Source of the DNA: Massalongia carnosa
Taxonomy: Eukaryota
Reading direction: 5' to 3'
DNA: 64,000 nucleotides
Assembly: GCA_965645245.1 (NCBI GenBank)
Contig: OZ287075.1
Location: 868,001 to 932,000 of the forward strand
The position numbers and the translations under genes are program-made. The notes under the pieces are model-generated. The model did no database searches and was not told where the DNA came from. It saw only the letters and a program-made list of their open reading frames with translations. Shown here in pieces: positions 31,427 to 54,849 of this stretch. Position 1 is the stretch's first letter. Every line of letters begins with the position of its first letter.

Positions 31427-31942
31427 CTACTCCAGCGTTCGCTTCATTCCGGCCTCAGCAAACACTAACTCCTCCTCATCCAGCTCGGGTCCCGGAGTCG
31501 TATCAATGTCATCAGAGATGTGAGGAATGGGCCTGCCATGTGACTCTCGCTTTAACCGAAAAGATGACCTAGTCCCAAAGTCCTCTTCCTCTGCTTTCTT
31601 CACATGCTGAAACATAATAATGGCCTCCTTTAGTGTCCGATTCCTCCATTCTCCAACTGCCCGTGACAGTTGGGCCATATCCACCTCCTCAATAACATCT
31701 TCTCGTTGAGCTTTGAACTCTTCTTCTTTCATCACCGAGGCCCAGGCATCATTCTGTATGACATAGTCATAATAGTCCACTATGCTATCCCCTAGCATAT
31801 GCTGGAACTCTATTAGCTGCGATTCTATGGTCCTCTGTCCCTCGTATCGGTCTGCTGGGGTCAATGTCTCAAGAAAAGCTAGTGCGTCTGTCATGTGGTG
31901 GAAGCGGTCATTTCCTAGGACAATGACTAATTGGAAAGACAT
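31427..31942 (-). CDS. Accessory ORF3 of G1, 171 aa, unknown function
   Basis: Open frame between pol and PPT; differs from the G2 copy by one residue. Confidence 0.6.
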   Translation of the reverse strand: MSFQLVIVLGNDRFHHMTDALAFLETLTPADRYEGQRTIESQLIEFQHMLGDSIVDYYDYVIQNDAWASVMKEEEFKAQREDVIEEVDMAQLSRAVGEWRNRTLKEAIIMFQHVKKAEEEDFGTRSSFRLKRESHGRPIPHISDDIDTTPGPELDEEELVFAEAGMKRTLE

Positions 31943-33956: not shown

Positions 33957-36900
33957 TGTTGAGGATAGCCGAGATGTCTGCTTATAGAAAATGGCACTAA
34001 CCCCAATGCGCACTAGCTATTGGAAGTATTTGGATTGGCCACCTTGGGATTTATCATCAACATCCCGCGTCTGATATTCTAGGAGACATTCGAACATTCT
34101 ACAGTGGATTGATAATGAGGCAAATATGTCAGCTTTGGAACTCCGACAAAGACGAGCTTACATATCAGCATTTGACTGACCGATCACATAGAAAGTGGGA
34201 GAATCGTGCTCAAGGCAGGCAGCGGTATATAATGGGCTATATGCCCCCATAGATAGCCTCAGTCATTTTCAATCAATCATTAGTAGCCTGCCATTGGATC
34301 AGCTTGATCATCGCACGTACTTTTTGCTGTTGTTTCCTACTTCCACCCCTATAATCCGTAGCCTCCGCAACAGGTTATGAGCCCGGTCAGCCAATAGGAA
34401 AAACAGTCTGAAAATCGACTCGAAATGTCTTCATCCACCCCTCAACAAACGCCCGGCCCCGAAATCGTGGTCAAGGATAGATCAGATGGGGCCGACGGTC
34501 GGATCACGTCCGGAGCAGGGGTAAGGGATGTTAAAGTTCCCAAACTAACCGAGGAAAATTATCGTACATGGAGTAAGATAATGAAGAATAACCTGATAGG
34601 TAAAAAGCTCTGGAGCATCGTCATTGGACGAATAGTATGCCCGGACGAGACTCGGCCCAGTGATCTGGAAGCATGGGAATTCAACAATGCTACGGCCATG
34701 ACATACATCATGACGGCCGTAGATGACAGACAGCTTCAACACATCATCCGATTGGACACAGCCAACGATCAGTGGGAGACACTAAATCGTATTCATAGGG
34801 ATATCGGACTGACACGCCTTATACCTCTTTCTAGACGGCTTTGTGGTTACAAAGCCGGCCCATCAGACTCCGTTGAGCAAATAGCTTCGGAGCTACGAAC
34901 CATTGCTGCTGTAATGGCCGAAATTCGACCCGGGGAGGAACCGTCGGAGTTTCTTCTAGCTCGAATATTGATGGATTCAATTGACGGGACCCCGTACGCC
35001 ATGGCTAGGGCCCTGTTGGAAGACAAAGGAGAAATAACCATGACCATGGTTATAGAAAAGTATAAGGAGGTGGAATCAAGAAATAAAGATGAGATAAGCA
35101 TCCCGGAAATTGCTAATAAGGCCTCATCTAGCCGAAAATTCACTGGAAAATGTTTCTATTGTGATAAGGCTGGCCACATAAAAACGGACTGTTTTCAATG
35201 GTTGAAAACGGATGAGGGCCGAGAGCACAAGCGGAAAAATGAAAATGCTTATCAAACCAATGATAGTAAGAGGCGGGGGAAATCATCAGGGAGTCGGGGC
35301 CGAAAAACGAAGAAATCGGACGAAGCACGACTGACCCAGGAGAATGATGCCCGATCTGAAGAAAGCGACTCGGAATACGCCCGTGCGGCTACCGAAGTCG
35401 AAGATTTTGGCCTGATGGCTCAAAATAAGGACGCGGTCCCTGCTCAGGAAGAATTTGCCCTGGTGACTCGAAACGATGACGCGGTCCCACTCGAAAAACT
35501 CAAGGAATGGGTTATTGACTCCGGAGCGAGTCGACATATGACCCCTGATAGGGGAATATTCGTCAACATGATGTTGATTAGAACGACAGTGCGTGTGGCC
35601 GACGGAACGGTCATCTCGTCAATTGGTCGAGGAGATATTCTCATTCGGATGAGAAACGGGGAGAAAATACGATTAACCGAGGTGTTATACGTCCCCGAGC
35701 TCGACACCAATCTTCTGTCCATACGAGCTCTTCAGACAAAGGGAATTTCTGCCCGCTTTGGTCTGAATGGAGTCGAAATAACCCGAGGGGATGCCTTACT
35801 GGCCACGGGAGTCCTGATTGGATCGTCGTACTTATTGAGGCCTGCCAGAGAAGATGTGGCCCTAGTCACCGACATGATAACGACGAAGAAAAAGCATATT
35901 CCGAATCCGAATCGGGACGGATATCTTTTGTGGCATGCCCGAATGGGTCATGTCGGACCAGGGAGGCTTGAAAAGCTCCCATTTCTGACCACCGGAGTCG
36001 GAAATTCAATAAAGCATCAGCATGATGGCGAAAAATGCGTCACCTGCAAATACACCAAAATGACGAAAATAATCAGTCGAATGCCCCCATTAAAAGCCAC
36101 ACGCCGGGGGGAACGTACATACTCGGACTATTGGGGCCCGTACAAAGTAATGAATTTACAGGGGTCCCAGTATTTTTTATCATTCATTGACGACTACACG
36201 CGTCGGTCAGAGGTGTATTTCGGGCCCAGATCAAGCCTGAGGGAGAATTTCTATCGATACAAAGCGAAATTCGAAGCCGAGACAGGGGAAAAACTGGCCC
36301 TGATTAGGAGCGACAATGCCAAGGAATATCATGCTCTGAAAAAAGACCTTTTGAATGAAGGCATTCTGATGGAATTTACTGATCCGTACACTCCCGAGCA
36401 AAACGGGGTCGCTGAGCGGATGAATCGGACACTAATGCAAATGGTTAGGGCCATGCAATTATGGGCCGGATTACCCAGAGAATTTTGGGGGGAGGCCCTG
36501 ATGGTAGCCAATTATTTAAGAAATCGGCTACCAACGAATACTCACGGGGGAAAAATGACCCCGTATGAGGCCTGGTATGGCCGAAAACCGGACCTGAATC
36601 ACATACGAACCTACGGATGCTTGGTGCATGCCCGTATCCCCAGTGAAAAAAGGGATAAAATGGATGTCGTGTCATTTCAGGGAATTTTTGTTGGTTATCA
36701 TTCGTCGAAACAGTATCGAGTCTATAACCCCGTTACGAAGAAAATCGGCTGGCATGCGGCCCCCGAATTCTTCGAGGACTGGCCCGGAGGGCCGTTATTG
36801 AATGCTCCGAGCCGGGCTGGGACTAGAGATTATTGGTTAGAAATGAGGGGGGAACATACATCGGTCATTTGGCCCATGGTCCTGGGGACGGGCCCCGGAG

Positions 36901-37379
36901 ACGACACGGATAGTCGAGGATATGCGAGGGCATGAAGTTATTCAGACATTCTCGGAGTGGGAGTGTTGAGGATAGCCGAGATGTCTGCTTATAGAAAATG
37001 GCACTAACCCCAATGCGCACTAGCTATTGGAAGTATTTGGATTGGCCACCTTGGGATTTATCATCAACATCCCGCGTCTGATATTCTAGGAGACATTCGA
37101 ACATTCTACAGTGGATTGATAATGAGGCAAATATGTCAGCTTTGGAACTCCGACAAAGACGAGCTTACATATCAGCATTTGACTGACCGATCACATAGAA
37201 AGTGGGAGAATCGTGCTCAAGGCAGGCAGCGGTATATAATGGGCTATATGCCCCCATAGATAGCCTCAGTCATTTTCAATCAATCATTAGTAGCCTGCCA
37301 TTGGATCAGCTTGATCATCGCACGTACTTTTTGCTGTTGTTTCCTACTTCCACCCCTATAATCCGTAGCCTCCGCAACA
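33957..37379 (+). mobile_element. Ty1/Copia element lacking RT and RNase H
   Basis: 416-bp LTRs (33957-34372, 36964-37379) that look identical; TSD CTATC; PBS GGTTATGAGCCC; PPT GGAGTGGGAG. Confidence 0.93.
34425..36935 (+). CDS. Copia Gag-protease-integrase polyprotein (836 aa), no RT/RH
   Basis: CFYCDKAGHIKTDC knuckle; WVIDSGASRHMT protease; LWHARMGH...CVTC; IRSDNAKEY and TPEQNGVAERMNRTL integrase; stop 28 nt before the 3' LTR. Confidence 0.9.
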   Translation: MSSSTPQQTPGPEIVVKDRSDGADGRITSGAGVRDVKVPKLTEENYRTWSKIMKNNLIGKKLWSIVIGRIVCPDETRPSDLEAWEFNNATAMTYIMTAVDDRQLQHIIRLDTANDQWETLNRIHRDIGLTRLIPLSRRLCGYKAGPSDSVEQIASELRTIAAVMAEIRPGEEPSEFLLARILMDSIDGTPYAMARALLEDKGEITMTMVIEKYKEVESRNKDEISIPEIANKASSSRKFTGKCFYCDKAGHIKTDCFQWLKTDEGREHKRKNENAYQTNDSKRRGKSSGSRGRKTKKSDEARLTQENDARSEESDSEYARAATEVEDFGLMAQNKDAVPAQEEFALVTRNDDAVPLEKLKEWVIDSGASRHMTPDRGIFVNMMLIRTTVRVADGTVISSIGRGDILIRMRNGEKIRLTEVLYVPELDTNLLSIRALQTKGISARFGLNGVEITRGDALLATGVLIGSSYLLRPAREDVALVTDMITTKKKHIPNPNRDGYLLWHARMGHVGPGRLEKLPFLTTGVGNSIKHQHDGEKCVTCKYTKMTKIISRMPPLKATRRGERTYSDYWGPYKVMNLQGSQYFLSFIDDYTRRSEVYFGPRSSLRENFYRYKAKFEAETGEKLALIRSDNAKEYHALKKDLLNEGILMEFTDPYTPEQNGVAERMNRTLMQMVRAMQLWAGLPREFWGEALMVANYLRNRLPTNTHGGKMTPYEAWYGRKPDLNHIRTYGCLVHARIPSEKRDKMDVVSFQGIFVGYHSSKQYRVYNPVTKKIGWHAAPEFFEDWPGGPLLNAPSRAGTRDYWLEMRGEHTSVIWPMVLGTGPGDDTDSRGYARA

Positions 37380-39305
37380 CTATCCATCGGACTATCAGAG
37401 CACCAGGCAAATCGGTACAAGCTCCATTCAATTGCGCCACTAGGACGTTGGCGTCTGTCTCCAACACAAAGTGAACTCCATATAGCCAGTGCCTTGTCTT
37501 TTTCAATGCCTTTAGAACGCCTCGACACTCTCGCTTGGTTGCATCATATCGCTGTTCCACCTCGCTCCATACTCCGCTTTCGTACCGAATGGGGTGACGC
37601 TTGCCATCAAAGATTTGCATCAGTACAGCGCCCCATCCTTTCAAACTCGCATCCACAGCCAATATGATAAGTCCAGCTAGCTCGCTATAGTCAATGGTCT
37701 TTAGTGCTGGCGGAGATGTCAGAGCTATCTTCAGCAAGTCCATTGCCTCGGTTTGTTCCATGCCCCATACAAAAGCAACATCTTTCTTCAGCAGACGATA
37801 TATTGGTTCAGCAACAATGGCAAAGTCCAATATCCATATGCGATAGTACACACACACACCTATAAAAGCACGAGCGGAAGAAGCGTCGGTGCATATCGGC
37901 CACTCTAGAATTTTGATGACCTTAGCGGTGTCCGGATGTCTACCATCTGAGTCGGTCACAAATCCTACTATCTTCAGACCGGCCATGCAAAATTGCGACT
38001 TTTCTCCGGAGATAGTGCATCCAGCCCTTTCTATGTCCGCGAGTACCCCATCTAGCCACGTGAGATGTTCAAGCACGTACTTTCTGATGCCCGGTGCCAC
38101 TTCTTCACCACCATAGTCAGTCTTCGGCCCCTTCACTCCGATGTCATCAAGGAAAGGTTTAGCACGATTCGGAATGTAGTCCTGCAGTATCTTTGTCACT
38201 ACCCGTACGAACTGTGCAACCGAATTGGTAGCTCCCATTGATATAGATGTCATTCGCAATAGTCCTATTGGTGTCATGAAGGCGGTCATGTCTCGACTAT
38301 GAACATCGAGTTCCATTTGGTCATATCCTGAAAACAAGTCGATCAAGGAAGCGATGTGGCAGCCAGCAAAGTCCTCTGAGAATTCGTCTACCGAAGGTGG
38401 CAGATTTGCGTCTCGGATGCTCACTTTGTTCATGTCTAGGGCCGCATTAATTAATCGGTACTTATTTTTCTCTTTCTTCTTCACTATGAACCATGGATTT
38501 CGATAGGGACCATGACAAGGTTCCAACGTTCCTCGCTGCAGTCGGTCCTTCAGCATCTCTATCACCATCGGTACCAGGGCCCTTGGCAATGGGAATGATG
38601 GGGTCTGCCATGCCTCATGTGGAATGGTGTTGATTTTACATGGTGGAGACACCTCAGGTTTGACTCTGCCCATCTCGGAAAACTCCCATGACAGCGCTGC
38701 TTCTCGGTTGTATAACATCTGGGTCAACAATTCTTTCTCAGCAGACGTCATACTGTCGCCCACTGTCATTCGCTGCAGCCGTTCCGGTGTCAATCGTGAA
38801 CCTTTGAATATTGTCGAGAACTTTGGAATCAGCCAATCAGGAAACTTTTCTAACTTTGGTAGACCTCTCTCTTTCTCTAGCGCCTTCGCCTTCCAATCTG
38901 CCATTCCACCAGGTATGGTGCCATCCGACTGGTCAGAATTCACTGGTCGAACTTTTACCGCTTTCCGCTTATACGCCGTGTCAACTCTCACCGTACTCCG
39001 CTTGCCGAACACTCTGTTTTGATTGATTGTATATATGTCGAATTTTCGAGAGAACCTTAGAGAGGAAAGTCCGACCGAGCCAATTAAGCGCGACGGTGTA
39101 AAGGCGCGAATATAGTGATCCATCGCTGCCACTTCCGCAATAGTCGCTGAGGGAGTTAGGGCTATTTGATTTAACAGGCCGGGCCTGTTAAATGGAACGG
39201 AAGAACCACTTTCCGGAAGTCCCACCCTAACACTCGATACTTTCGCTCTCTCCAGGTTTTTACCACCACTACCAACCATGGACCTGTTCTGCACATGGTG
39301 GTTGG

Positions 39306-42176
39306 TCAGTTTAAATTCTCCTCTCGGCCCTCCGGAAACAGGTCCTCTGCAGTACGATTTTTACTAGTTGAGTCAGAAGTTGCGGTGAATTTGGCAGCTC
39401 GGTTTCCCTCCTCCGCATGTATAGTACATTCCACCTCGTTATTCTGATAATCCATATCGACACGCATCTGATGAAGATAAGGTTGGCCCAACACTAATTG
39501 ATGATCCGCAGCGTCGATGACAAATATGTGATTGAGCGACACTATTCCGCCAATATTAACCTCAACGTCCTCACATACACCTAGGAATTCTTTCCGGTCT
39601 CCAGTATGAGAAATAAGATTGATATTGGGATAGGGTCGCATAGCTAGGCCTTCACGCTTGGCCACGTTGCACGTCATCACATTCACTTCAGCGCCGGAGT
39701 CTAGGAGAGACTTATACCTGTTGCCATCGCCGATCTGCACTTTGGCCTTTGGTGTTGACCTCGTGTAGGCCCTGCGAAGTCGCGGGTCCCGAATGCCAAT
39801 TGAACCAATTTTTACCGTTGGACCCTCTGCCTTTTCCGGTTCGGCATTCCGTGTCATCTTATTGACCACCGGTTTAAACGTAGGCATCATGGCCATCAGA
39901 TTTTCATAGGTCAGTCCTCCAGCACCAGGCAAAGGTATTTGCAAACAACGACTCTGTATTAGGTCCATGTTGAACTCATGTTTCGCGATCCGTAGAAACT
40001 CTTCGGTGCCCATCTGTTCTATCGCAGACCGAACCTCCTTTCGGATGGGGCCTGTCGGAACCCCGACCCCATGTTTCTTTCCTTTGCCGCCGCCGCTGCT
40101 ACTGCGGAGGCGGCTAGCTGGGCCCGCCTCCGTCATGGTCACCTCTTCTTCCAAAGGGTCGGCGAATGTAACACGAGGTTCAGTCGCATGAGATTTATCA
40201 GTTACAATTGAGCTAGGTGGCCTTGATTGGTCAGAGTTGTCACTCCGACGTTCTACCGAGGCAGGAACCGGGTTCTAACTGCCATATCTGGGTGCTTTCG
40301 GTACTGCGAACTTGTCCTCGCGTTCAGCCCTGCGTTTCAGAATTCGCTTAGCTGGCTCCCTCCAGCTCTCCTCGACAGGCTTCTGTTGTTCCGTTCTAGC
40401 TGAATTGACAGAGGTGGTGTCGATGATGGTCACCTCAGGGTCCCATTCTTCATCAGATGAATATTCGTCCGCGCTATCCTCGCCAATTCGAACTGAGTGG
40501 ACATCAGCACTTTGGTCCGCATGACTGAATTGATTGGCCAGCATTTTTGCGCGCCTAATGGACTCCTTCTGTGTCACCCCGGGCACATGCCGAATGGGAT
40601 TGGAATATGTGCCCATCGGTCCTAGACATAACAACCCTCGCTCATTCAGATGAATAACACCATTCCGCTGGTCGGCATCAAACTCCGGGCAGTTCCTCCG
40701 CCTATCATGGGTCTCCTTCTCTCCACAGTATGTGCAGGAATCCTCCCCTCCATACTGACGGTCATTCGGTTTCTGGCCATCATAAGGTGCCTGTCTACCA
40801 GGTGACTGTGAACGGTTCCGAGTCTGCTGACTGTTCTGATTGGCTGGACGGGCCTGAGTTCCCGCCATCAGGACCAGCGCATCAAACCTTTCGGTTAAAC
40901 CGGCAATAGCCTTCTCCGTGGACTTCGACAAACTAACGGTCGAACTGTCTGCAACTGGTGGGGTAAGTGAATTCATGATATTTTCATGACCATCCAGCAC
41001 TATCTTCCTACCAAATTGATCGGCTAGGGCACTATATTTGTCAGTAACACTCTTCTCAGTCCGCATCACCTCTTTATATTTGAGCCTCGCCTCCACTAGT
41101 CCCAATGTCTTCTTCACCAATCCATCAAAGTCCTTCATCACATTATCGTCAATATCAACACCTCGGCGGAAGAACAACTCCTCGCGTACGTCCTTGGGAA
41201 GGCCCTGTAGGAACCACTGATTGCGTGTATAAATATCTAGCTTTTCCTGACCAATTAGGACTTTGGATATGGCCCCGAACTTTCGGCAAAAGTTTCGCAC
41301 GTCATCTTCACTAGTACGTTCCTTGTCCTTGTATGACTCCAAAAACGCTCGAGAATTCACCTGCTGAATACTATCACCAGCCTTATACTCCTTCTTCATC
41401 ACCTTACATAGCTGAGCTCATCTTCTTTCCACAAAGTCAGGTAGTGACTCCACCGTCTGTCCAATTAGCATGTCACAATAGCGGGGTAAACTACGAATCT
41501 TTTCATTGTTCCCGACTTGGTAGTCTTCGCACATGTCTTCATACCTACTCAAGAACTCCGACACATTTTTACCTTGAAAGAATGGGGTCCCGGGAGTCCC
41601 TGGCTGAGGCATGATCATCACAAACCCGAAGGGCCCCGCAGACATAGCAGGTCTATTCCCAGAGTACTCGGGACTAGTCGTAGATGGAGTAGCCATGTCG
41701 CTGATTGTTGCACCACTAGACTGATTTTCGATTGTAGATATGGTAGCCGACGATGAACTCTCACACTCAGGTCGAGTCGGTGGGCTAGTTCGGACAGCAG
41801 TCTCAGTAGCAGGTTCAGTATGCTTGCAGGTAGTAGTAGCAAGTCGCTCAAGTATAGGTAGGAGGTGTGTAACGATTTTCGAAAGAAGAGCTGTTGTTGT
41901 TTCCTTGTCCTCTCTATTCGACTGACAACAGTAGTGATGACAGTGCGGGCTAGTAGGATGAATGTATGGTAGAGGTAGGTCCGAAGGCCTGTTATGCTGA
42001 TATGCTTTGTGCTCGACACTGTCTGAACAGGATGAATAAGGTGAAAAAGATGGATGAAATGATCTGTTGAAGATGGGCAGTGAGGCAGCTTTTATGCCTC
42101 CTCGGTGCCGTTCAGTCGCCATGGTCTCGATTCCGGATGGCCTTCGGGCAGGAATGCGGTACTTTCTGAACCCCAT
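39306..42176 (-). pseudogene. gag: G1 gag-protease with two nonsense codons
   Basis: Colinear with G2 gag; TGA at 41418-41420 and TAG at 40275-40277 where G2 has Trp; LLDSGAEVNVM protease. Confidence 0.85.
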
Positions 42177-43824
42177 GTTTCTGGTGGGTCCTTCTGTTCA
42201 CATTGTCAAATCGACGTCGTCGCTCAGTCCTCGAGGCTGCTCGCTTATTCTCACGATCTTCTCAAACAGGATTAGCTTGCCACCGAGACGGAATTCGAGC
42301 TCGCTGATTGGTTCGGGTCAAATCGGCCACCTATCTCCCGCCTATCGGAATCGTGATGTCGCTACGTTAGACTCTCGACCGTCTCCACCGTGTCGCTAGG
42401 GCTAGGAAAAATACGTCAGTTGGGCCAACTGACACGTATTATACGTCACGTGCAGACTTGGACCCTGTCTTTTTGGTATAATATTACTTAAGCATGTCAA
42501 ATTTATCCTTCTCATAGATCAATACCTGAAATTACTAGACATTTCTACCTAATTTGAGGTACCTTCCTATTATCTCTATACATACATTGATCATGTCTCG
42601 ACAATCTGGACATTCTGGCGGTCGACCGAAAAATGCATTGGTAGATGAGAATTTCGTTGATGTCATCATTGAAGGCATGAAATACCCTCAGCATCGTTGT
42701 ACGCATTGCAGATATCAGTCTGCCAAAGTTGCTACCAGGGGTCAGCAGCATTTGCAGACATGCAATGCCTTTCAAGAAGTGCAAGAAAGAAGACAGCAAG
42801 AGACGTCTTCTAGGAGCAGCAAATCTTTGATTCAATTGCCCATCACCCCTTTGATTCGTCCCTTAAATCAAGCCCAAGTTGCGCATGCTCATCGCGCTGC
42901 TGCAATGTCCGTCTTTATGACCAATCTTCCGTTTAACCACTTCGAAAATCCCTATGTGATTGCTCATCATCAAGCACTGCATCCTGGATATAAACCTCCA
43001 CATCATAAGCTCGTTGGCGGGAAATTATTGGACGACGCCTATGAGACGGTTAAACTGAAAGTAAATCAGCAGTTAGATGCCTGCAGTTATCTCAACTTCT
43101 TTACCGACGAAACGGCCAACATTAAGAAGGAACGGGTTATTAATCTCTGTTGTCATGTCCCTTCATCAGCTACCTCTCGAGGGGGGGGCTTTCATTTAAA
43201 AGCAATGGCCGGCATCGCTGAGACGATGACTGCAGCTGTTCAAGCTGAGTGGATGATAAAAGGCTGTAGAGAAGCGACCAATAATCAGCTCTGGAGAGTC
43301 AATTGTATAGGAACAGATACTTGCTCTACTATGAAGGCCATGTGGTCTGAAATTCGAAAGTTTCCTGAGATGAGACACGTCTTTTTCGTTCCTTGCGACA
43401 GTCACGGTTTACAGCTTCTTTTGGGAGACATTTTGAAGCTTCCTTTTTTTGCAGACATGCAAAAAGCTCAGTCGATAGTGATAGCTTTTCGTGGATCGAA
43501 TAAAGAATTGGCCATTCTATGGAATTTTCAGATGAAGGTAAGTAGGAATGAAATTTCAATGCGGCATCAAAACGTCATTGCTAATTTATAACTTTCAAAG
43601 GCATACAATCAACGTCAATCACTGATTCTCAACGTTTTCACCAGATGGGGTACGACTGTAGGCCTTTTGAACTCGGTGCTAAAAAGCAAGCGGGCAATTT
43701 TGGATTATTTTCAGCAAAATGCTCCGGGCATTGATCAGGGCAGAAGTCATCCTTTAGGAACATTCGTCAACGACTTCTCGTTTTGGAAAAAGCTGGCCAT
43801 CGTACAGAAAATTCTTGATCCCAT

Positions 43825-44644: not shown

Positions 44645-45320
44645 CCCATACATAAAGCACAATACATGTCCGAGGCCGAGGGGCATAAACTGTACGCGGT
44701 GACTGCAAATTGGAACAGGCTTCGATCTCACCTATATACAATGGCCAAAGAGGATGAAGATTCTGAGATGGATTTGCATCACATTGCAGAGATAGTTTAG
44801 GAAGATCGATATCTCAGTCAAATAACTGAACTTCATGTGGTAGCAGCTCTGTTGGTTCCTCAGAATCATAACATTCAGGTGATTGGAGTATCCACGTCGC
44901 AGGCATTTTTCTCTATCATGCTGTGGAAGGATGAACTGGGTGGTGTGCGTGGTCCACTACTGCTAGGAGTGCAAGAGAACAAACAAACAAGAGAAGAACA
45001 GAACAATAGAATAAGGACAATAGCTAGACTGGTCTCTGTATGCCTCGTGCCTCGTGCCTCGTGCCTGTGAACTGTATGTGTTGATGCTATGTGTTGTAGC
45101 TATTGCTACGAGCATGCTTGCTCTATAAGGAAAAGAACTATCTATAACTAAACTAAAAGAAAGACTGTCACCTGACTTCCCCGCTACCTTTACCGAGTAT
45201 CAACCGAAAAGAACCAACTCCCGAACCGCTAGCAATTTGAATTTAGAGTATCACCGCTCCACCCCCCTACATAGTTCCCCTCTCTCTTTAGGTGTCGACC
45301 CCTGACACCTATCACTGTTC

Positions 45321-45836
45321 CTACTCCAGCGTTCGCTTCATTCCGGCCTCAGCAAACACTAACTCCTCCTCATCCAGCTCGGGTCCCGGAGTCGTATCAA
45401 TGTCATCAGAGATGTGAGGAATAGGCCTGCCATGTGACTCTCGCTTTAACCGAAAAGATGACCTAGTCCCAAAGTCCTCTTCCTCTGCTTTCTTCACATG
45501 CTGAAACATAATAATGGCCTCCTTTAATGTCCGATTCCTCCATTCTCCAACTGCCCGTGACAGTTGGACCATATCCACCTCCTCAATAACATCCTCTCGT
45601 TGAGCTTTGAACTCTTCTTCTTTCATCACCGAGGCCCAGGCATCATTCTGTATGACATAGTCATAATAGTCCACTATGCTATCCCCTAGCATATGCTGAA
45701 ACTCTATTAGCTGCGATTCTATGGTCCTCTGTCCCTCGTATCGGTCTGCTGGGGTCAATGTCTCAAGAAAAGCTAGTGCGTCTGTCATGTGGTGGAAGCG
45801 GTCATTTCCTAGGACAATGACTAATTGGAAAGACAT
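45321..45836 (-). CDS. Accessory ORF3 of G2, 171 aa (155 aa from MTDAL), unknown function
   Basis: Open frame downstream of pol in the same orientation; 4 synonymous and 1 non-synonymous difference from G1. Confidence 0.62.
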   Translation of the reverse strand: MSFQLVIVLGNDRFHHMTDALAFLETLTPADRYEGQRTIESQLIEFQHMLGDSIVDYYDYVIQNDAWASVMKEEEFKAQREDVIEEVDMVQLSRAVGEWRNRTLKEAIIMFQHVKKAEEEDFGTRSSFRLKRESHGRPIPHISDDIDTTPGPELDEEELVFAEAGMKRTLE

Positions 45837-46193
45837 GCCAAAAGATGTAAGGCAAGTAAGGTAAGATAAATTGTTCCAAGTTATCGAGTAGCTTGCTGAC
45901 TTTCGCTTAGATAAGAAGTTGAGCTTAGCAGAGATGTTTGCTGATAGGAAGATAGTATATGTGCTGATCAGGTAGGTAGTAAAAGCTAGATAATTTGCTG
46001 AGTTCTGGTAGTATGGAAAAGGTAAAACATGGAGGTGAGGATTCGGAAGATGGCAATTTCGACTAAGGTTGGTGAAGTTTTCGGTGAATTTTGGTAAGTG
46101 TGAAATGAAACTATTCCGAAGGTTCGTGTGCTTCCTCCGCTGACAATATGCATTTTACTAAGGAAATTCGTTCGATATAGGTAGTCGGATATG

Positions 46194-49100
46194 TCAATTT
46201 TCCACCGTCTCCATCGCATCAGCACGTCTGCTAGGAATCACTACTGCCATTGGCCAGCCAGGTGGAATCATGGACTGTCGGTCGTCCTCGTCCCCCCCAT
46301 GGTTTATAGTCGGCCCCTGACTATTATGTTGCTCAGGTTCTTCTATCGGAGGTAAGTTAATATTTTGCCGAGCATGAAATGGTTTCAGTCGATTTCCTGC
46401 AAAGGTTCCAGCTAATAGGGTGCCGTCTAGTTCACATAGTTTGTAAGTTCCCTTATCAACAATTGTTTGTTGAATTTTATATGGTCCTAACCACCTGAAC
46501 GTTAGTTTGCCTGTGTGCTGATTGTCTAATTTAGTGTCGTGCAAAAGAATTAATTGACCCTCGGTGAGTTCAATTGATCTCAGATTGTTCAGAGTGTCAA
46601 AGGTCTCTTTGCCTTCCATTCTTTGTCTTTGCAGGAATAAAGCTGTCTCTTCCATGTCTTCATCCCTTCGCTGTATTTGTCTCGCACGCATAGCTAGCAA
46701 TTCGTCTGTTGTATGAACTTCATTCCATGGTAATATTCTCCATGTTGGAATTTCCAGTTCAATTGGTAGAACAGCCTCATTGCCGCTATTCAGATAGAAA
46801 GGTGTGTTGCCGGTGCTAGCACGAACTGTTGTACGGTCGGCCCATATTACTGCAGGAAGATTATCAACCCATTTGCCCATGCCTCCATTTGTCATTTTGG
46901 ATAATGCTTGAACAACTGGCCGATGTCCCCGTTCTATCATGCCATTGGCTTGCGGATGATAGGCAGAAACAACTACTCTTTTGATACCATATCGATTTGC
47001 TAATTCGATAACAGCATCTTTGTTTTCTGGTCCACCATCAACAATCAGTTTTCCGAAGCACCCATGTCTGCATATAACATCTTCCCACAAGAATCTCGCG
47101 ACATTCTGAGCGGTAGCTTTTCCTAGTGCTCTACCCTCGACCCATCCGGAAAAGTCATCTCTGGCCATAACAATATAGTGCTTGCCTCGACAAGCTGGCA
47201 TGTGGACCACGTCTAAGCCAACCTTCTGCCACATGAAGGTAACCCATGTCGGATGAAGTGCTTCCTCGAGCCTAGTGGGGTCACGTTTCTGACATTCCTC
47301 GCAGGACCGAACATAGCCTTTTACATCATCGTGCAATTGTTCCCACCAGTACCTGTCTGCTATGCGTCTGTATGTGCCCTCTCTGCCTCTATGTCCACTT
47401 TCGTCATGCAGCTGTTTCAATATTTCCAACTTCCGCTCATCGGAGTCTATCACTCTCCTGGAAGGTACGTTCTTGCTGTTTCGTCTATAAAGATGGCCAT
47501 CTTGTACTCGATAGCGCAAGGCCTCGCTCTTAAACGCTCTAAACTCTTTGCGGTTTAGTCCAACCGGCTTTTGTAGTGATGTTAGAAATGCAGCGATTCT
47601 CTCGGACTTATCACTATATCCGGCCTTTAGCACTTTTTCGTCTGGCACCTCGTCTGCGGAGTTAACGGAAATTGGACAGGCCCTTAGTGAATTCAGTTCG
47701 GCATCTATGAAGTCGTCTATGTCTTGCTCCTGCTGTTCGGCCCGAATTTCTTCCTCAGTATGAGGTCGTCTAGACAGTCCATCTGCTGCCGTATGTTTTC
47801 GGCCAGCAACATGTTTGACCTCGAAGTCAAACAGTCGTATCCATGCTATCCATCGGACTATCAGAGCACCAGGCAAATCGGTACAAGCTCCATTCAATTG
47901 CGCCACTAGGACGTTGGCGTCTGTCTCCAACACAAAGTGAACTCCATATAGCCAGTGCCTTGTCTTTTTCAATGCCTTTAGAACGCCTCGACACTCTCGC
48001 TTGGTTGCATCATATCGCTGTTCCACCTCGCTCCATACTCCGCTTTCGTACCGAATGGGGTGACGCTTGCCATCAAAGATTTGCATCAGTACAGCGCCCC
48101 ATCCTTTCAAACTCGCATCCACAGCCAATATGATAAGTCCAGCTAGCTCGCTATAGTCAATGGTCTTTAGTGCTGGCGGAGATGTCAGAGCTATCTTCAG
48201 CAAGTCCATTGCCTCGGTTTGTTCCATGCCCCATACAAAAGCAGCATCTTTCTTCAGCAGACGATATATTGGTTCAGCAACAATGGCAAAGTCCAATATC
48301 CATATGCGATAGTACACACACACACCTATAAAAGCACGAGCGGAAGAAGCGTCGGTGCATATCGGCCACTCTAGAATTTTGATAACCTTAGCGGTGTCCG
48401 GATGTCTACCATCGGAGTCGGTCACAAATCCTACTATCTTCAGACCGGCCATGCAAAATTGCGACTTTTCTCCGGAGATAGTGCATCCAGCCCTTTCTAT
48501 GTCCGCGAGTACCCCATCTAGCCACATGAGATGTTCAAGCACGTACTTTCTGATGCCCGGTGCCACTTCTTCACCACCATAATCAGTCTTCGGCCCCTTC
48601 ACTCCGATGTCATCAAGGAAAGGTTTAGCACGGTTCGGAATGTGGTCCTGCAGTATCTTTGTCACTACCCGTACGAACTGTGCAACCGAATTGGTAGCTC
48701 CCATTGGTATAGATGTCATTCGCAATAGTCCTATTGGTGTCATGAAGGCGGTCATGTCTCGACTATGAACATCGAGTTCCATTTGGTCATATCCTGAAAA
48801 CAAGTCGATCAAGGAAGCGATGTGGCAGCCAGCAAAGTCCTCTGAGAATTCGTCTACCGAAGGTGGCAGATTTGCGTCTCGGATGGTCACTTTGTTCATG
48901 TCTAGGGCCGCATTAATTAATCGGTACTTATTTTTCTCTTTCTTCTTCACTATGAACCATGGATTTCGATAGGGACCATGACAAGGTTCCAACGTTCCTC
49001 GCTGCAGTCGGTCCTTCAGCATCTCTATCACCATCGGTACCAGGGCCCTTGGCAATGGGAATGATGGGGTCTGCCATGCCTCATGTGGAATAGTGTTGAT

Positions 49101-49781
49101 TTTACATGGTGGAGACACCTCAGGTTTGACTCTGCCCATCTCGGAAAACTCCCATGACAGCGCTGCTTCTCGGTTGTATAACATCTGGGTCAACACTTCT
49201 TTCTCAGCAGACGTCATACTGTCGCCCACTGTCATTCGCTGCAGCCGTTCCGGTGTCAATCGTGAGCCTTTGAATATTGTCGAGAACTTTGGAATTAGCC
49301 AATCAGGGAACTTTTCTGACTTTGGTAGGCCTCTCTCTTTCTCTAGCGCCTTCGCTTTCCAATCTGCTATTCCACCAGGTATGGTGCCATCCGACTGGTC
49401 AGAATTCACTGGTCGAACCTTGACTGCCTTCCGTTTGTATGCCGTATCAACTCTCACACTACTCCGTCGCCCGAACACCCTGTTCTGATTGATCGTGTAC
49501 ATGTCCAATTTCCGAGAAAACCTCAGAGCCGAAAGTCCGACCGAGCCAATTGCACGCGACGGTGTGAAGGCGCGAACATAGTGGTCCATCGCCGCCTCTT
49601 CCGCACTAGTCGCTGTAGGAGTTAGGGCTATTTGATTTAATAGGCCGGGCCTGTTAAATGGAATGGAAGATTTATTCTCCGATAGTCCAACCCTAAAACT
49701 CGACACTTTCGCTCTCTCCAGGTTTTTATTACTGCTACCAGCCATGGACCTGTTCTGCACATGGTGGCTAGCTAGTTTAAA
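46194..49781 (-). CDS. pol: G2 Pol (RT-RNase H-integrase), predicted to be reached by -1 frameshift
   Basis: About 1190 open codons with RT (PFLDD), RNase H and DDE integrase motifs; slippery TTTAAAC at 49781-49775. Confidence 0.93.
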   Translation of the reverse strand, partial: FKLASHHVQNRSMAGSSNKNLERAKVSSFRVGLSENKSSIPFNRPGLLNQIALTPTATSAEEAAMDHYVRAFTPSRAIGSVGLSALRFSRKLDMYTINQNRVFGRRSSVRVDTAYKRKAVKVRPVNSDQSDGTIPGGIADWKAKALEKERGLPKSEKFPDWLIPKFSTIFKGSRLTPERLQRMTVGDSMTSAEKEVLTQMLYNREAALSWEFSEMGRVKPEVSPPCKINTIPHEAWQTPSFPLPRALVPMVIEMLKDRLQRGTLEPCHGPYRNPWFIVKKKEKNKYRLINAALDMNKVTIRDANLPPSVDEFSEDFAGCHIASLIDLFSGYDQMELDVHSRDMTAFMTPIGLLRMTSIPMGATNSVAQFVRVVTKILQDHIPNRAKPFLDDIGVKGPKTDYGGEEVAPGIRKYVLEHLMWLDGVLADIERAGCTISGEKSQFCMAGLKIVGFVTDSDGRHPDTAKVIKILEWPICTDASSARAFIGVCVYYRIWILDFAIVAEPIYRLLKKDAAFVWGMEQTEAMDLLKIALTSPPALKTIDYSELAGLIILAVDASLKGWGAVLMQIFDGKRHPIRYESGVWSEVEQRYDATKRECRGVLKALKKTRHWLYGVHFVLETDANVLVAQLNGACTDLPGALIVRWIAWIRLFDFEVKHVAGRKHTAADGLSRRPHTEEEIRAEQQEQDIDDFIDAELNSLRACPISVNSADEVPDEKVLKAGYSDKSERIAAFLTSLQKPVGLNRKEFRAFKSEALRYRVQDGHLYRRNSKNVPSRRVIDSDERKLEILKQLHDESGHRGREGTYRRIADRYWWEQLHDDVKGYVRSCEECQKRDPTRLEEALHPTWVTFMWQKVGLDVVHMPACRGKHYIVMARDDFSGWVEGRALGKATAQNVARFLWEDVICRHGCFGKLIVDGGPENKDAVIELANRYGIKRVVVSAYHPQANGMIERGHRPVVQALSKMTNGGMGKWVDNLPAVIWADRTTVRASTGNTPFYLNSGNEAVLPIELEIPTWRILPWNEVHTTDELLAMRARQIQRRDEDMEETALFLQRQRMEGKETFDTLNNLRSIELTEGQLILLHDTKLDNQHTGKLTFRWLGPYKIQQTIVDKGTYKLCELDGTLLAGTFAGNRLKPFHARQNINLPPIEEPEQHNSQGPTINHGGDEDDRQSMIPPGWPMAVVIPSRRADAMETVEN

Positions 49782-52700
49782 GTTTCGTCTCGGTTCTCCG
49801 GAAACAGGTCCTCTGCTGTATGGAGTTTGCTACCAGGATCGGAAGTCGCTATGAACTTAGCAGTTCGTTTCCCATCTTCAGCATGTATGGTGCATTCTAC
49901 CTCGTTGTTACGGTAGTCCAAGCCCACACGCATCTGGTGAAGATAAGGTTGTCCTAGCACTAGTTGATGGTCCGCAGCATCAATGACAAATATGTGGTTA
50001 AGCGACGCTACTCCGCCAATATCAACCTCCACGTTTTCACACACCCCGAGGAATTCCTTTCTATGTCCGGTATGGGAAATTAGATTGATATTTGGGTAAG
50101 GTCGCATGGCCAGACCCTCGCGCTTAGCGACATCATATGTCATCACGTTCACTTCGGCACCTGAGTCAAGAAGAGACTTATATCGGCCTCCATCACCAAC
50201 TCGCACTTTGGCTTTAGGTGTCGACCTTGTATATGCTCTGCGGAGTAGTGGATCCCGAATGCCGATAGAGCCGATTTTTACCGTTGGACCGTCCTGTCTT
50301 TCTGCTTCCGTATTTCGTGTCACTTTGTTAACTACCGATTTAAACATGGGTAACATGGCTATGATATTGCCATTGGTCAGTCCTCCAGTACCAGCTGCTA
50401 GCGATTGCAGATAGCGGCCCTGTATCAAGTCCACGTTGAACTCTCGTCTCGCTATCTTCAGGAATTCTTCTGCACCTATCTTTTCTATGGCGTCTCGAAC
50501 TTCTCCACGAATAGGTGCCCTCAGCACTCCGGTACCCGGCTTCTTCTTTCCGCCGCCTTTCCCAGCTAGACCTGCTTCTGTCATTTCCACATCTTCTTCT
50601 ATAGGGTCAGCAAATGTTACCCGAGGTTCTGCCGCGGAAGCTCTGTCGGTTGGTTTTGATTGGTCAAGACTATCATTCCGACGTTCTACCGACGTAGGAA
50701 GCGGACTCCAATTGCCATATCTAGGTGCTTTCGGTACTGCGAAATGGTCCTCGCGCTCAGCCCTGCGTTTCAGAATTCGTTTAGCCGGCTCTTTCCAGTT
50801 CTCCTCAGCAGGTTTATTGTTTTCGGTCCTAGCCGAGTTGATAGAGGTAGTATGTTCGATGATCGTCACCTCCGGGTCCCATTCTTCGTCAGAAGAAAAG
50901 TCATCTGCACTATCCTCGCCTATTCGAACCGTGTGCACTTCGGCATTTTGTCCAGCTTGACTAAATTGATTGGCCAACATCTTCGCACGTCTAATGGACT
51001 CTTTTTGTGTCACACCCGGTAAATGCCGAATTGGGTTGGAATATGTACCCATCGGTCCCAGACAGAGCAGGCCTTTCTCATTCAGATGGATAACACCATT
51101 CCTTTGGTCAGCGTCGAAGTCTGGACAGTCTCTTCGCCTGTCATGCAGTACCTTCTCTCCACAATAGTTGCAGCTTTCGTCGCTACCATATTGATGGTCA
51201 TGCTGTTGTCTCTGTCCGTCATAGGATGACTGTCTATGTGGTGATTGGGAACGGTTCCGACTCTGCTGACTCTGCTGACTATTCTGATTGGCCGGTCGCA
51301 TTTGAGCTCCGGTGGCAAGGACTAATGCATCGAACTTATTGGTCAGGTCCATGATAGTTTTCTCCGTGGACTTCGATAGGCTAACAGTAGTCGAGTCTGC
51401 TACTGGTGGACTAAGCGAGTTCATGATATTTTCATGACCGTCTAGCACTATCTTTTTGTCGAACTGGTCGGCTAGAGCACTATATTTATCGGTTACACTC
51501 TTCTCGGTCCGCATCACCTCCTTATATTTCATTCTCGCCTCTACTAGTGTCAGAGTCTTTTTCACCAGTCCATCAAAGTCCTTCATCACATTATCGTCGA
51601 AATCAACACCTCGGCGAAAGAACAACTCTTCGCGTATGTCAGCAGGAAGACCTTGCATGAACCACTGATTTCGTGTGTAAATGTCTAGCTTCTCTTGACT
51701 AATTAGGGCTTTGGATATGGCACCGAACTTCCGACAGAAGTTCCGCACATCATCGTCGCTAGTGCGTACTTTGTCCTTGTATGACTCCAGAAACGGTCGA
51801 GAATTCACCTGCTGAATGCTATCGCCAGCCTTGTACTCTTTCTTCATCACCTTGCTCAGCTGTGTCCATCTTCTCTCCACAAAGTCCGGAAGCGACTCAA
51901 TGGTCTGGCCAATTAGCATGTCGCAATAACGGGGCAACCTACGAATCCTCTCATTGTTTCCGACATGATAGTCCTCACACATATCCTCGTACCGACTCAG
52001 GAACTCCGACACATTTTTACCTTGAAAGAATGGAGTGCCAGGAGTGCCTGGTTGAGGCATGGTCATCACAAATCCAAAGGGTCCAGCGGACATGGCTGGT
52101 CTATTTCCAAAAGACTCGGGGCTTGTCGACGATGGTGTGGTCATGGTGCTCTCTGCCTCGTGACTAGGTTGACCTTCGGTTGTAGGTATGATAGTCGATG
52201 GACTATCTCGGCTCGCAGGTGGAGCAGGACTATCAGTTCGCGTACGTGCCTCGTTAGTGTTTCGGACGCTAATGACAAGTTGCTCAAGAAGAGGAATGAG
52301 GTTTGTAACGATTTTTGTCAGCTGTGAGGTAGTTGTTTCTTTGTCGTCAGAGGTTGGGATATGACTACTCGGCTGACAATAGTATTGATGACAATGCGAA
52401 ACAGGATGATGAGTATACGTCTCTCCTGCAGACGAATGACCAATAGGAGCTTGCTTAGTCGGCTCGAAACAATGATATGACAAACAAGGACAAGTATGTG
52501 TCTGGTACGGTGGAGGTAGGTCGAAATGTCTGTGGTGCAGAGGTGCTGGTGCCGCCTCCGTATGCAGACGTTGTCTGTTATAGCAATGCGCTCTGCTTTC
52601 TCTCTCGGTATTGTCAACTGGTGAATAGGAAGTTTGATATGAATTGTACGAATGGGTAGAATGGAATGGCTGCGCTATTCTGCCATCGGAGGGAAATGAG

Positions 52701-52792
52701 GCTACTTTTATGTCTACTCCGTGTCGTTTTGTCTCTCGGTTCCCGACGCTGGCTAATCTCCTAGCAGGAATGCGATACCGCTCAGGCCCCAT
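49772..52792 (-). CDS. gag: G2 Gag-protease
   Basis: About 1000 open codons; PFFQGKNVSEFL gag-like region, atypical knuckle CNYCGEKVLHDRRRDC, LLDSGAEVNVM protease; ATG at 52792 is homologous to G1 42176. Confidence 0.88.
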   Translation of the reverse strand: MGPERYRIPARRLASVGNRETKRHGVDIKVASFPSDGRIAQPFHSTHSYNSYQTSYSPVDNTERESRAHCYNRQRLHTEAAPAPLHHRHFDLPPPYQTHTCPCLSYHCFEPTKQAPIGHSSAGETYTHHPVSHCHQYYCQPSSHIPTSDDKETTTSQLTKIVTNLIPLLEQLVISVRNTNEARTRTDSPAPPASRDSPSTIIPTTEGQPSHEAESTMTTPSSTSPESFGNRPAMSAGPFGFVMTMPQPGTPGTPFFQGKNVSEFLSRYEDMCEDYHVGNNERIRRLPRYCDMLIGQTIESLPDFVERRWTQLSKVMKKEYKAGDSIQQVNSRPFLESYKDKVRTSDDDVRNFCRKFGAISKALISQEKLDIYTRNQWFMQGLPADIREELFFRRGVDFDDNVMKDFDGLVKKTLTLVEARMKYKEVMRTEKSVTDKYSALADQFDKKIVLDGHENIMNSLSPPVADSTTVSLSKSTEKTIMDLTNKFDALVLATGAQMRPANQNSQQSQQSRNRSQSPHRQSSYDGQRQQHDHQYGSDESCNYCGEKVLHDRRRDCPDFDADQRNGVIHLNEKGLLCLGPMGTYSNPIRHLPGVTQKESIRRAKMLANQFSQAGQNAEVHTVRIGEDSADDFSSDEEWDPEVTIIEHTTSINSARTENNKPAEENWKEPAKRILKRRAEREDHFAVPKAPRYGNWSPLPTSVERRNDSLDQSKPTDRASAAEPRVTFADPIEEDVEMTEAGLAGKGGGKKKPGTGVLRAPIRGEVRDAIEKIGAEEFLKIARREFNVDLIQGRYLQSLAAGTGGLTNGNIIAMLPMFKSVVNKVTRNTEAERQDGPTVKIGSIGIRDPLLRRAYTRSTPKAKVRVGDGGRYKSLLDSGAEVNVMTYDVAKREGLAMRPYPNINLISHTGHRKEFLGVCENVEVDIGGVASLNHIFVIDAADHQLVLGQPYLHQMRVGLDYRNNEVECTIHAEDGKRTAKFIATSDPGSKLHTAEDLFPENRDETLN

Positions 52793-54849
52793 GTCTGTGG
52801 GTACACTATATTTTTGCCACTGTCGCACTCACGCCGTCGCTAAATCATTGAGGCATTCGCTAAATGTGGCGATGTTCTCAAACGGGATTAGTCTGTCGAC
52901 TTCAACTGCCGAGTCGCAATTCCGAGGCTCCTGATTGGTCCGGTCCGTAATGCCGTCACTTTTCCGTCTTTCTTCGTCTCGATGTCAATTCTTTTAGTAC
53001 CTAGACCGTCTCCACCGTGTCGCAAGCTGTATGGGGTCGTCCCGTCGCTATGTCCGAGTCCGCGCGTTCTTGAGAGGTCTGTTCGTGCCTCGTTGTCAGG
53101 GTCAAATGGATGCCCCCGTTCTTTCTGTCTTTCTCCGGTCACTGTATGTCGTTTTTCCACTATCTCTAGATATCTGTACGCTGTCGCTGCTTCCTGTCGC
53201 TGTTTCCTGTCGCTATTTCCTGTCGCTGTCGCTGTCGCTGTAAGTCTACTGTCTGTCTCACATGTCTGTCTAGACTCGTCGTTTGATTCCTGCTCCCGGT
53301 CAAATAGAGATCGCACCGTGGTCGCCAAATGTGGAAGGATGAACTGGGTGGTGTGCGTGGTCCACTACTGCTAGGAGTGCAAGAGAACAAACAAACAAGA
53401 GAAGAACAGAACAATAGAATAAGGACAATAGCTAGACTGGTCTCTGTATGCCTCGTGCCTCGTGCCTCGTGCCTGTGAACTGTATGTGTTGATGCTATGT
53501 GTTGTAGCTATTGCTACGAGCATGCTTGCTCTATAAGGAAAAGAACTATCTATAACTAAACTAAAAGAAAGACTGTCACCTGACTTCCCCGCTACCTTTA
53601 CCGAGTATCAACCGAAAAGAACCAACTCCCGAACCGCTAGCAATTTGAATTTAGAGTATCACCGCTCCACCCCCCTACAATGCATAGATTCTTTGCTGAA
53701 TATCTGAACATTGAAGAAGCAAAGTCGGCAATGAAGCAATGGCTTTCTTTTCGAAATCAAGAAGACGGTTTTTATCCTGCCTCCGAATGCTGGACATATC
53801 AAACGGATTCGGAGCTGTTTTGGAACTTTTCCAGAAGCTTTGCTTTTGATCTCAGCAACATAGCTAGAAAGGTAATAATGCTGCCTGCTAATTCGGTGCT
53901 GGCAGAAAGAAATTGGTCGGTCATGAATTTGATCATGACCAAAAGTCGGAACTCTCTACATTCCATCAATGTCGATAAACTCATGTTTATTTACATGAAT
54001 GAGCGTACTCTTAATCGGCCAACAGATTTCAAAAGCAAGCTTCAGTTTGCTGGCATCGACATCAATGAGACGGATCTTTGTGAGATGGAGGATAGACTAC
54101 TGCAAAAAGAGATCTCTTTATCTGATACGTCCATGTCATCATCGAAAAGACCGGCGAGTCAAACGATATTTGGTGATGCGACGAGAGCTTGGATAAACAC
54201 CTAGCTAGTAGAGTAGGAGATACATAAAATTGTACGCAAATTGCTAACAAAATAAAGTATCTTTTCCCCACTTTCTATGTTCCCGCTTCTTCCGCCCCCC
54301 CCCCCCCTCCCCCCCAGTAGCTAATCCCTGTGTCTGTCAGTTGGGCCAACTGACACGTATTAAACACTTCCCGATCGGGTTAGTCAATAAACATGTTTAA
54401 TACATATCCTAGCCCTAATTACTGGTCGCCTTCTGTTAAACGAGGTGATCTTTATCTTATCTTGGGACTAGTCCTAATGCGGCTTCGACGGTTTCCTAGA
54501 TATTGTACTAATAGGAGTTGGATATTCAACAATTATCGATGCATTCGTTTTCTTTATTTCTTTTCAGATATGTTATCTACCGAAGGTTCCTCGTCCAGCT
54601 CTTCGAATTGTCGTCGAATGTCGACGATTTAAAGCGTTGAATTATTTGAACGTTACGAAAGAGGAGAAGAATAAAACAATGAATGCTAATTGATATCGAG
54701 AGTCTCGGAGATCTCGACAAGATTAGAGCATGAAATCTGTACGTTTTTCTGATGAAAAGAGATAAAGGACTCGCGTCGAATGAGAATTTTTCAATTAAAT
54801 TGATCATGTCGAAAGGTCTTTAAAGAGACAGGAAAAATATAAAAGAATT

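Follow-up and report, generated by a model that had tools for sequence, protein, structure and literature searches.

The 64,000-nucleotide stretch of contig OZ287075.1 of Massalongia carnosa analyzed here (assembly GCA_965645245.1, positions 868,001 to 932,000; hereafter, the window) contains two copies of a single family of Gypsy retrotransposons, G1 and G2, both on the minus strand. Each copy has a third open reading frame (ORF), ORF3, which is located between the stop codon of pol (46194 in G2) and the polypurine tract (PPT). Alignments with its relatives indicate that ORF3 joins the two extremities, N-terminal and C-terminal, of a large protein with a PhyH-like oxygenase domain, the catalytic middle of which is gone. 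The ORF is therefore likely to be a remnant rather than an envelope-like gene, and the explanation favored here, with moderate confidence, is that it represents the in-frame, internally deleted residue of a large accessory gene.

The Two Ends of a Long Protein

The family of ORF3 was not recognized in the preliminary description of this DNA, which proposed profile and structure searches of the protein, and it has now been placed. A phmmer search of 1.84 billion representative sequences recovered 18 relatives at E ≤ 0.001, five of them at E ≤ 1e-10, and the long matches, P0019 (819 amino acids, aa), P0024 (911 aa), and P0032 (880 aa), were each aligned in two stretches. Pfam returned no family for ORF3 at E ≤ 1, and a word-indexed protein search found only its own family, a cluster of 22 variants with approximately 98% identity, together with one older copy at 79%; the same type of search with P0019 found only P0019 itself. 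None of the 95 pattern matches in a scan of genome contigs with ORF3 encode a relative, and nor do any of the 50 found in viral contigs with the long-form alignment. The long relatives are intronless fungal proteins of 819–952 aa, uncharacterized "hypothetical proteins". One of them, P0032, is KAI9767399.1, from a metagenome-assembled genome named Candelina submexicana by its source.

The two modules of ORF3 (Table 1) correspond to the two extremities of these proteins. The pattern F....FL......RY..Q......Q....F.DYV....AW of the N-terminal module, and the pattern WR.R.....F..VKKAE..AFG..SYF of the C-terminal tail, are both common to ORF3 and the long proteins. In pairwise BLASTP comparisons, collinear matches of the N- and C-terminal halves were found in six of nine long ORFs (P0019, P0024, P0032, and those of loci L002, L003, and L007), while the two halves together were not obtained in the other three (L005, L010, and L012). 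The E values of the N-terminal half ranged from 1.4e-13 (P0019) to 4.6e-4 (L003), and those of the C-terminal half include 7.1e-11 (P0019) and 6.7e-24 (P0020). In two MAFFT alignments (A2 and A5), ORF3 occupies both ends, separated by a single gap of approximately 850 columns, with some 650–750 residues of the long relatives being absent from it.

The closest relatives of ORF3 are themselves fragments of the long form. The sequence P0018 matches residues 17–100 of ORF3 at 52%, and then runs into the linker of the long form, and P0020 matches residues 86–171 at 45%, shares the KRESH...ISDD.D...MKRT tail, and has the oxygenase core directly upstream. When P0020 is taken as a proxy for the lineage of ORF3, its nearest long form is P0019 (40%), and the farthest is the ORF of L012 (25%).

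Two other readings of the frame were rejected. A chance frame is excluded by the E values of the relatives across the whole database. A read-through extension of pol was also discarded, given that pol and ORF3 share a reading frame, but are separated by three stops (a TGA, 11 sense codons, and then TAG TAA, at 46155–46196).

The Missing Oxygenase Core

The middle of the long forms, which is missing from ORF3, contains a conserved C.C ... C..H motif and an FRH.D core. In an alignment of 12 long-form sequences, invariance is complete at H650, R660, and R661, and nearly so at H550 and D552, an arrangement of HxD...H plus arginine that we take to be the signature of the 2-oxoglutarate (2OG)/Fe(II) oxygenases. 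The Pfam family PhyH (PF05721) matches three of the 12 members at E ≤ 1 (best E 4.5e-6), with P0019 scoring 18.8 bits, which is below the 22-bit Pfam gathering cut-off. In the ESM Atlas, the clusters nearest to P0019 are PhyH (scores of 0.88–0.89), a result that serves as a lead only, and a sequence-profile search of the PDB with the long forms returned nothing at E ≤ 0.1, only T4 lysozyme at E 0.14. Taken at the level of sequence, the core of the long forms, at approximately residues 480–740 of P0019, would be a PhyH-like 2OG-Fe(II) oxygenase. As aligned, ORF3 itself cannot be an oxygenase, because the HxD...H triad and the RR motif both fall in its gap.

Origin of the Truncated Gene

In the favored explanation, the ancestor of the Gypsy family would have had the gene at full length, placed between pol and the PPT, as the L012 locus appears to do, and a deletion of approximately 2 kb, most likely caused by template switching during reverse transcription, would have brought the two terminal helical modules together in a frame of 171 codons. 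That the gene was ancestrally borne by the element and then internally deleted is reasonably probable, and is a better explanation than its main alternative, the direct capture of a host fragment. In this alternative, which we judge to be unlikely, part of a host PhyH-like gene or messenger RNA would have been acquired by template switching onto a host transcript, independently of L012, and would never have existed as a full-length gene of the element. Under either origin, the alignments indicate that ORF3 is a truncated derivative.

The principal evidence of an element-borne long form comes from L012. A metagenome scan with the long-form alignment recovered 16 loci, and L012 is the only one of these in which the gag and pol of the window found a match by tblastn. 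This locus has a 2314-aa gag-pol ORF, the pol portion of which is 46% identical to that of the window over 1057 aa, while its gag matches that of the window at E 1e-15. Downstream, on the same strand, lies a 1224-codon ORF with the oxygenase core, which runs right up to a purine tract, with a TG after it. The gene order thus mirrors that of the window, that is, a long-gag Gypsy element, then a third ORF, and a purine tract. The long-gag type appears to be rare, with only four related clusters being recovered by a word-indexed search with the gag of the window. As both this type of element and the gene family are rare, and their order and orientation are the same in both cases, two chance meetings are unlikely, and yet this is what the capture of a host fragment requires. 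The sequences P0018, P0020, and P0033 also tell against capture from the host. They are AT-rich, as well as being rich in I, N, K, and F, and have the appearance of repeat-induced point mutation, which, on a reading of the sequences, suggests repeated DNA, and they sit on short contigs of 1.4–2.5 kb.

A number of observations weigh against the element-borne origin. At L012, a PPT-like tract is found immediately after pol (7327–7345), followed by a 548-nt LTR-like segment (7343–7890; LTR, long terminal repeat) with 8-nt inverted ends, TGATGAGT...ACTCATCA, and a TATA-like box precedes the long ORF. Because of this second PPT-like tract, the LTR-like segment, and the TATA-like box, the long ORF could lie outside the element. 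At the other loci whose upstream flank covers at least 3 kb (L007, L010/L011, and L016), no gag or pol was found beside the gene, and the neighbors look like host genes; direct repeats flanking the gene are absent in L010, L007, L002, and L003. The profiles of the terminal modules, built from ORF3 and its relatives, do not match the long ORF of L012, with nothing below E 0.2 being found when these hidden Markov models were compared with this ORF, the gag and pol of the window, and the gag-pol of L012. The link between ORF3 and an element-borne long form is therefore indirect, given that its modules are unmatched in the L012 ORF, which is also the one farthest from P0020. The resemblance of the modules to the standalone genes of the P0019 type, rather than to the ORF of L012, favors capture from the host, as does the position of these standalone genes among host-like neighbors, with no flanking repeats, and their lack of introns fits retro-copying.

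In L012, a 98-nt repeat (7671–7768 and 7888–7985; 88% identical) straddles the end of the LTR-like segment, possibly the residue of an LTR located between pol and the long ORF. No LTR pair was found at this locus within the 12.1 kb searched. At L007, the standalone long PhyH-like gene is preceded on its own strand, at a distance of 2.2 kb, by an ORF with a rva_4/rve integrase core (6470–7573). The immediate upstream neighbor of this gene, the ORF at 8282–9496, is conserved in L003 (81% at the amino acid level), most likely due to the orthology of the two loci.

Selection and Survival of ORF3

The 171-codon sense ORF noted in the preliminary description in both G1 and G2 is present in both, as is the product's lack of resemblance to a typical Env. 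The protein is acidic (36 D+E versus 19 K+R), with no membrane anchor and no Pfam family; no hydrophobic segment was found in it, with the 19-residue Kyte-Doolittle mean peaking at 0.68. A third ORF in the env position is also, as had been claimed, a feature of the family as a whole, as seen in the cluster of 22 variants. A tblastn search of the window with ORF3 found only the two known copies, and the comparison of ORF3 with the gag of its own element revealed no similarity (best E 0.34).

Exactly five of the 516 nucleotides are different in the two copies, and here the earlier count of four synonymous changes and one Ala/Val replacement was confirmed to the letter. The synonymous differences are F46 (TTT/TTC), E81 (GAG/GAA), L104 (TTA/CTA), and P138 (CCT/CCC), and the sole non-synonymous one is V90A (GTC/GCC); the G1 alleles are those of the family majority at four of these five sites, in the contigs placed on the element. 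The ratio of non-synonymous to synonymous rates (dN/dS) is 0.067, and the binomial probability of at least four of five changes being synonymous is 0.009 under a model of all substitutions, and 0.044 with transitions only. In the 99%-identical part of pol, the corresponding counts are 16 synonymous and 10 non-synonymous. This resemblance between the 4:1 excess of ORF3 and the 16:10 of pol is a further point against a simple remnant, arguing against the simple neutrality of the mini-ORF in the active lineage. The impression that ORF3 behaves like pol in the replicating lineage is nevertheless a weak one, with five sites carrying little weight.

The survival of the frame is less suggestive. Among the variants listed (15 of the 22), the full-length forms number eight, with 171 aa in seven cases and 170 aa in the other, and the remaining seven variants are truncated. 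Counted by contigs, ORF3 is open in 17 of the 25 listed copies and truncated in the other eight, with the most common variant, P0001, being full length and found on seven contigs. A neutral simulation with substitutions only leaves 60–78% of the copies open at 1–2% divergence. As 17 of 25 fits this neutral range, the openness of the ORF is no evidence of selection. The older copy at 79%, P0004, has an indel and changes typical of decay. The purifying selection proposed in the preliminary description is thus weakly supported by the synonymous excess, while the fraction of open copies fits the neutral decay of a young family, and the overall signal of selection is weak.

Under the favored explanation, the mini-ORF would now be a passenger in a very young, multi-copy family, with copies that are approximately 98–99% alike, and its openness would be due mostly to this youth. 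The identity of the two LTRs of G2, at all 350 positions, is the reason for regarding this element as young. The synonymous excess may hint at some residual constraint in the replicating lineage, such as a retained binding module or a function at the RNA level, a suggestion that is unproven.

A stronger version of this constraint would make the mini-ORF a selected, functional small protein, in which the terminal modules serve for binding, as a decoy, or in regulation, with possible partners in the full-length oxygenase of sister elements or host paralogues, in Gag, or in the integrase. We consider this rather unlikely. The low dN/dS (skewed, as it is in pol), the prevalence of the full-length variant, and the fact that the frame survived the deletion with both its original start and its original stop all point in this direction, as does a confident alignment-based structural model. 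Against this, the informative sites number only five, truncation affects eight of the 25 listed copies, leaving a proportion of open frames in keeping with neutrality, the older copy is decaying, and no known fold or family points to a function.

The model in question was obtained with AlphaFold2 from a 23-sequence alignment (predicted local distance difference test, pLDDT, 88.2; predicted template modeling score, pTM, 0.58), whereas ORF3 as a single sequence reached a pLDDT of only 48.1. The predicted structure consists of a beta-hairpin (residues 7–14), a helix at residues 29–64, and a second helix at residues 81–125, which crosses the deletion junction, followed by a disordered acidic stretch and a terminal helix. 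A Foldseek search of the PDB with the alignment-based model found no match at E ≤ 0.001 (65 at E ≤ 10), and a wide VIA-align search found only generic helical hairpins (best Z 5.5, none with Z ≥ 8), while the ESM Atlas provided no usable match for ORF3. The structure searches that had been proposed were thus carried out, and they returned no specific analogue.

The Proposed Splice Acceptor

The env gene of the errantiviruses is made from a spliced subgenomic RNA, and the preliminary description raised the possibility that ORF3 is an accessory gene expressed in the same way, with its acceptor at the AG of 45810–45809, at the end of a pyrimidine-rich tract. The position between pol and the PPT fits this proposal, as does the upstream spacer, which leans toward pyrimidines (Table 1). 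The two strings cited for the tract and the start, TTGTCCTAG (with its AG at 45810–45809) and CACCACATG, are both present in the sequence. The first of these, however, lies within ORF3 itself (codons 7–10), downstream of the first ATG at 45836.

The AG is not supported as an acceptor. It falls inside the coding N-terminus, which the homologues share from their own start codons, with the MSFQLVIVLGNDRF of ORF3 aligning with homologue starts such as MESLYLVSLGDQRF and MSNQSIIRYGSITF, and its codons form part of the confidently predicted beta-hairpin. No CTRAY was found in the 70 nt before the AG, and no GTRNGT in the 501-nt leader, motifs which we take to be the branch-point and donor consensus, respectively. 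Splicing at this site would also put a 6-codon, out-of-frame AUG first. The product has no signal peptide, membrane anchor, or glycoprotein family. Finally, no joint between the leader and ORF3 was found among those listed for the contigs of runs X1, X2, X6, and X7 (Logan contigs of unrecorded kind). An env-like gene expressed from a spliced RNA is, in sum, highly improbable.

Six joints were listed in these contigs, including an opposite-strand LTR-to-LTR joint (44922/53330), a skip within the 3' LTR (44995 to 45159), and others in the region of the leader, gag, and 5' LTR (52145 to 53004, 53024 to 53094, and 53212 to 53249), together with one, in run X2, from 45312 to 53310. In this last case, two LTR flanks, that on the PPT side of the 3' LTR and that on the PBS side of the 5' LTR (PBS, primer-binding site), meet in a single contig, which skips 7997 nt and is an LTR–short core–LTR deletion form of G2, present as DNA.

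If ORF3 is expressed at all, a transcript that starts in the G-poor spacer upstream of the ATG at 45836 would be likelier than the proposed splice. This spacer is well conserved, with only two of its 357 sites differing between G1 and G2, and could hold an internal promoter or 5' untranslated region. The frame of ORF3 is free of stops back to 46154, that is, for 106 codons upstream of the ATG, across the spacer.

The Carrier Element and Its Surroundings

The element G2 (44922–53679) is structurally intact, and is a Ty3/Gypsy LTR retrotransposon, with LTRs, a target duplication, a PBS, a PPT, and the protease–reverse transcriptase (RT)–RNase H–integrase order all present (Table 1). The Pfam domains follow one another as Asp protease, RVT_1, RT_RNaseH, Integrase_H2C2, and rve. 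The gag is unusually long, and matches none of the Pfam gag families.

Table 1. Features of the Gypsy elements and of ORF3 in the window (positions are those of the window)
Feature	Position	Strand	Description
G2 3' LTR	44922..45271	(-)	350 bp, starts TG at 45271; 350/350 identical to the 5' LTR
G2 polypurine tract AAAGAGAGAGGGGAA	45275..45289	(-)	3 nt before the 3' LTR
ORF3 of G2	45321..45836	(-)	171 codons + stop; product P0001, 19.9 kDa, isoelectric point (pI) 4.68
ORF3 C-terminal module, residues ~96–171	45324..45551	(-)	Alignments indicate homology to the C-terminal tail of the long proteins
Internal-deletion junction zone, residues ~88–100, ...EEVDMVQLSRAVGEWR...	45537..45575	(-)	Placed by the alignments, to this zone only
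ORF3 N-terminal module, residues 1–~93	45558..45836	(-)	Alignments indicate homology to the N-terminus of the 819–952-aa PhyH-like proteins
AG proposed as splice acceptor	45809..45810	(-)	Codons 9–10 (CTA GGA) of the conserved N-terminus
Spacer between pol and ORF3	45837..46193	(-)	357 nt; G-poor (41 G/357), C+T 58%
G2 pol ORF	46194..49760	(-)	1188 aa: RT, RNase H, integrase zinc-binding domain, integrase core
G2 gag-protease ORF	49772..52828	(-)	1018 aa; ~870 residues precede the aspartyl protease
G2 PBS-like TGGCGACCACGG... (TGGCGACC...)	53327 downward	(-)	Starts 2 nt inside the 5' LTR
G2 5' LTR	53330..53679	(-)	350 bp
G2 target duplication ATGC	44918–44921 and 53680–53683		4 bp
ORF3 of G1	31427..31942	(-)	P0002; protein is the consensus of 7 full-length variants

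The second copy, G1, extends from 31024 to approximately 42200, and is split by a nested 3.4-kb element (33957–37379). When G1 (31024–42400) is compared with G2 (45332–53079), the two are approximately 99% identical from around 49300 down to ORF3, in the coordinates of G2, whereas identity is only some 65–85% on the 5' side of about 49400, which covers the gag-protease and the start of pol. Because of this change, G1 looks like a recombinant of two subfamilies. In the contigs placed on G2, a second haplotype is found at 49419–49530, at roughly one third to two fifths of the depth in runs X1 and X2.

The nested element is Copia-like and lies within the pol of G1, with flanks that overlap by 5 bp (47846–47850 in the coordinates of G2). 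Its direct repeats are at least 300 bp long and 100% identical (33957–34256 and 36964–37263). The element also has an 845-codon frame with gag, Pol_BBD, and integrase domains, with no match to an RT, and may be an internally deleted, non-autonomous element. On the plus strand, DUF659 and hAT C-terminal dimerization domains flank G2 (42539–43591 and 53641–54204), which seems to have been inserted into a hAT transposase gene.

Elsewhere in the window, another Gypsy element (2449–10800) has RT_RNaseH, integrase, and Tf2-1 SH3 domains at 5955–8630, and LTR-like repeats at 2449–2792, 8694–8915, and 10670–10799. The host genes include TFIIB (12261–13202), an aquaporin-like MIP (15123–15944), and DUF1765 (17633–19384). 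A fungal-type protein kinase (PF17667) is found at 55829–57367 in two adjacent minus-strand frames, split by an intron or frameshift.

Significance

What appeared to be an orphan ORF becomes a datable event in the evolution of these elements, in which a large, oxygenase-like gene linked to a Gypsy lineage lost its catalytic core. The terminal modules also provide a first handle on the "hypothetical proteins" of 819–952 aa found in lichen-associated and soil fungal sequences. If the long form is indeed element-borne, fungi would join the orchids as hosts of Gypsy elements that carry 2OG oxygenases, and the role of such an enzyme against the host's silencing of RNA, DNA, or chromatin marks would become testable. 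It is conceivable, although improbable, that a fungal long-gag Gypsy lineage, apparently in lichen-associated fungi, carries a PhyH-like oxygenase as its third gene, plausibly for counter-silencing, and would be the fungal equivalent of the AlkB-Gypsy elements of the orchids. The family of the window would, in that case, have derived from the two terminal modules of this gene a "headless" mini-protein under selection, to which the full-length enzyme, or paralogues of it in the host, would be the target of an adaptor or decoy function. The case also advises caution, in that an open frame and a synonymous excess between two young copies do not suffice to conclude that an accessory gene is functional. 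Of greater interest than ORF3 itself are the long form and the possibility that it exists inside Gypsy elements.

Comparison with Known Systems

The LTR elements with accessory ORFs are already known, and ORF3 is probably a degraded accessory gene of this kind, not an env. In the literature searched, which did not extend to the subscription journals, no PhyH-like ORF has been described in a fungal LTR element.

One comparison is with the PhyH-like proteins of 819–952 aa themselves (P0019, P0024, P0032, and the ORFs of L002, L003, L007, and L010). ORF3 has both of their terminal modules, in the same order, but the central residues, with the C.C / C..H motif and the HxD...H core among them, are missing. 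These proteins are mostly encoded by standalone genes, whereas ORF3 lies within a Gypsy element. Like the env of the errantiviruses, such as the gypsy element of Drosophila, ORF3 is found between pol and the 3' LTR. Unlike this env, it has neither a membrane anchor nor a glycoprotein family, its product is acidic and helical, being modeled as an all-helical hairpin, and splice motifs were not found.

In the fungi, the Boty/BcGypsy1 element of Botrytis cinerea has an extra gene, brtn (Zhao et al. 2011, cited in PMC8365987). As described in that citing text, both brtn and ORF3 are additional small ORFs of unknown function in a fungal Gypsy element; to judge from the title cited there, brtn is antisense, whereas ORF3 is in the sense orientation, and the comparison is one of descriptions only.

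In the orchid genus Phalaenopsis, Ty3/Gypsy elements have an extra ORF with an AlkB-type domain of the 2OG-dependent dioxygenases (2-ODD), an RNA demethylase of N6-methyladenosine (m6A), according to PMC9289625. The two systems are alike in the association of a Gypsy LTR element with an extra ORF of the 2OG/Fe(II) oxygenase superfamily, which is not an env. They differ in the host, which is fungal here, and in the domain, which is PhyH-like, rather than AlkB. They also differ in that the family of the window has kept only the terminal modules, with the core deleted, L012 being the one locus at which the long form appears to be carried by an element.

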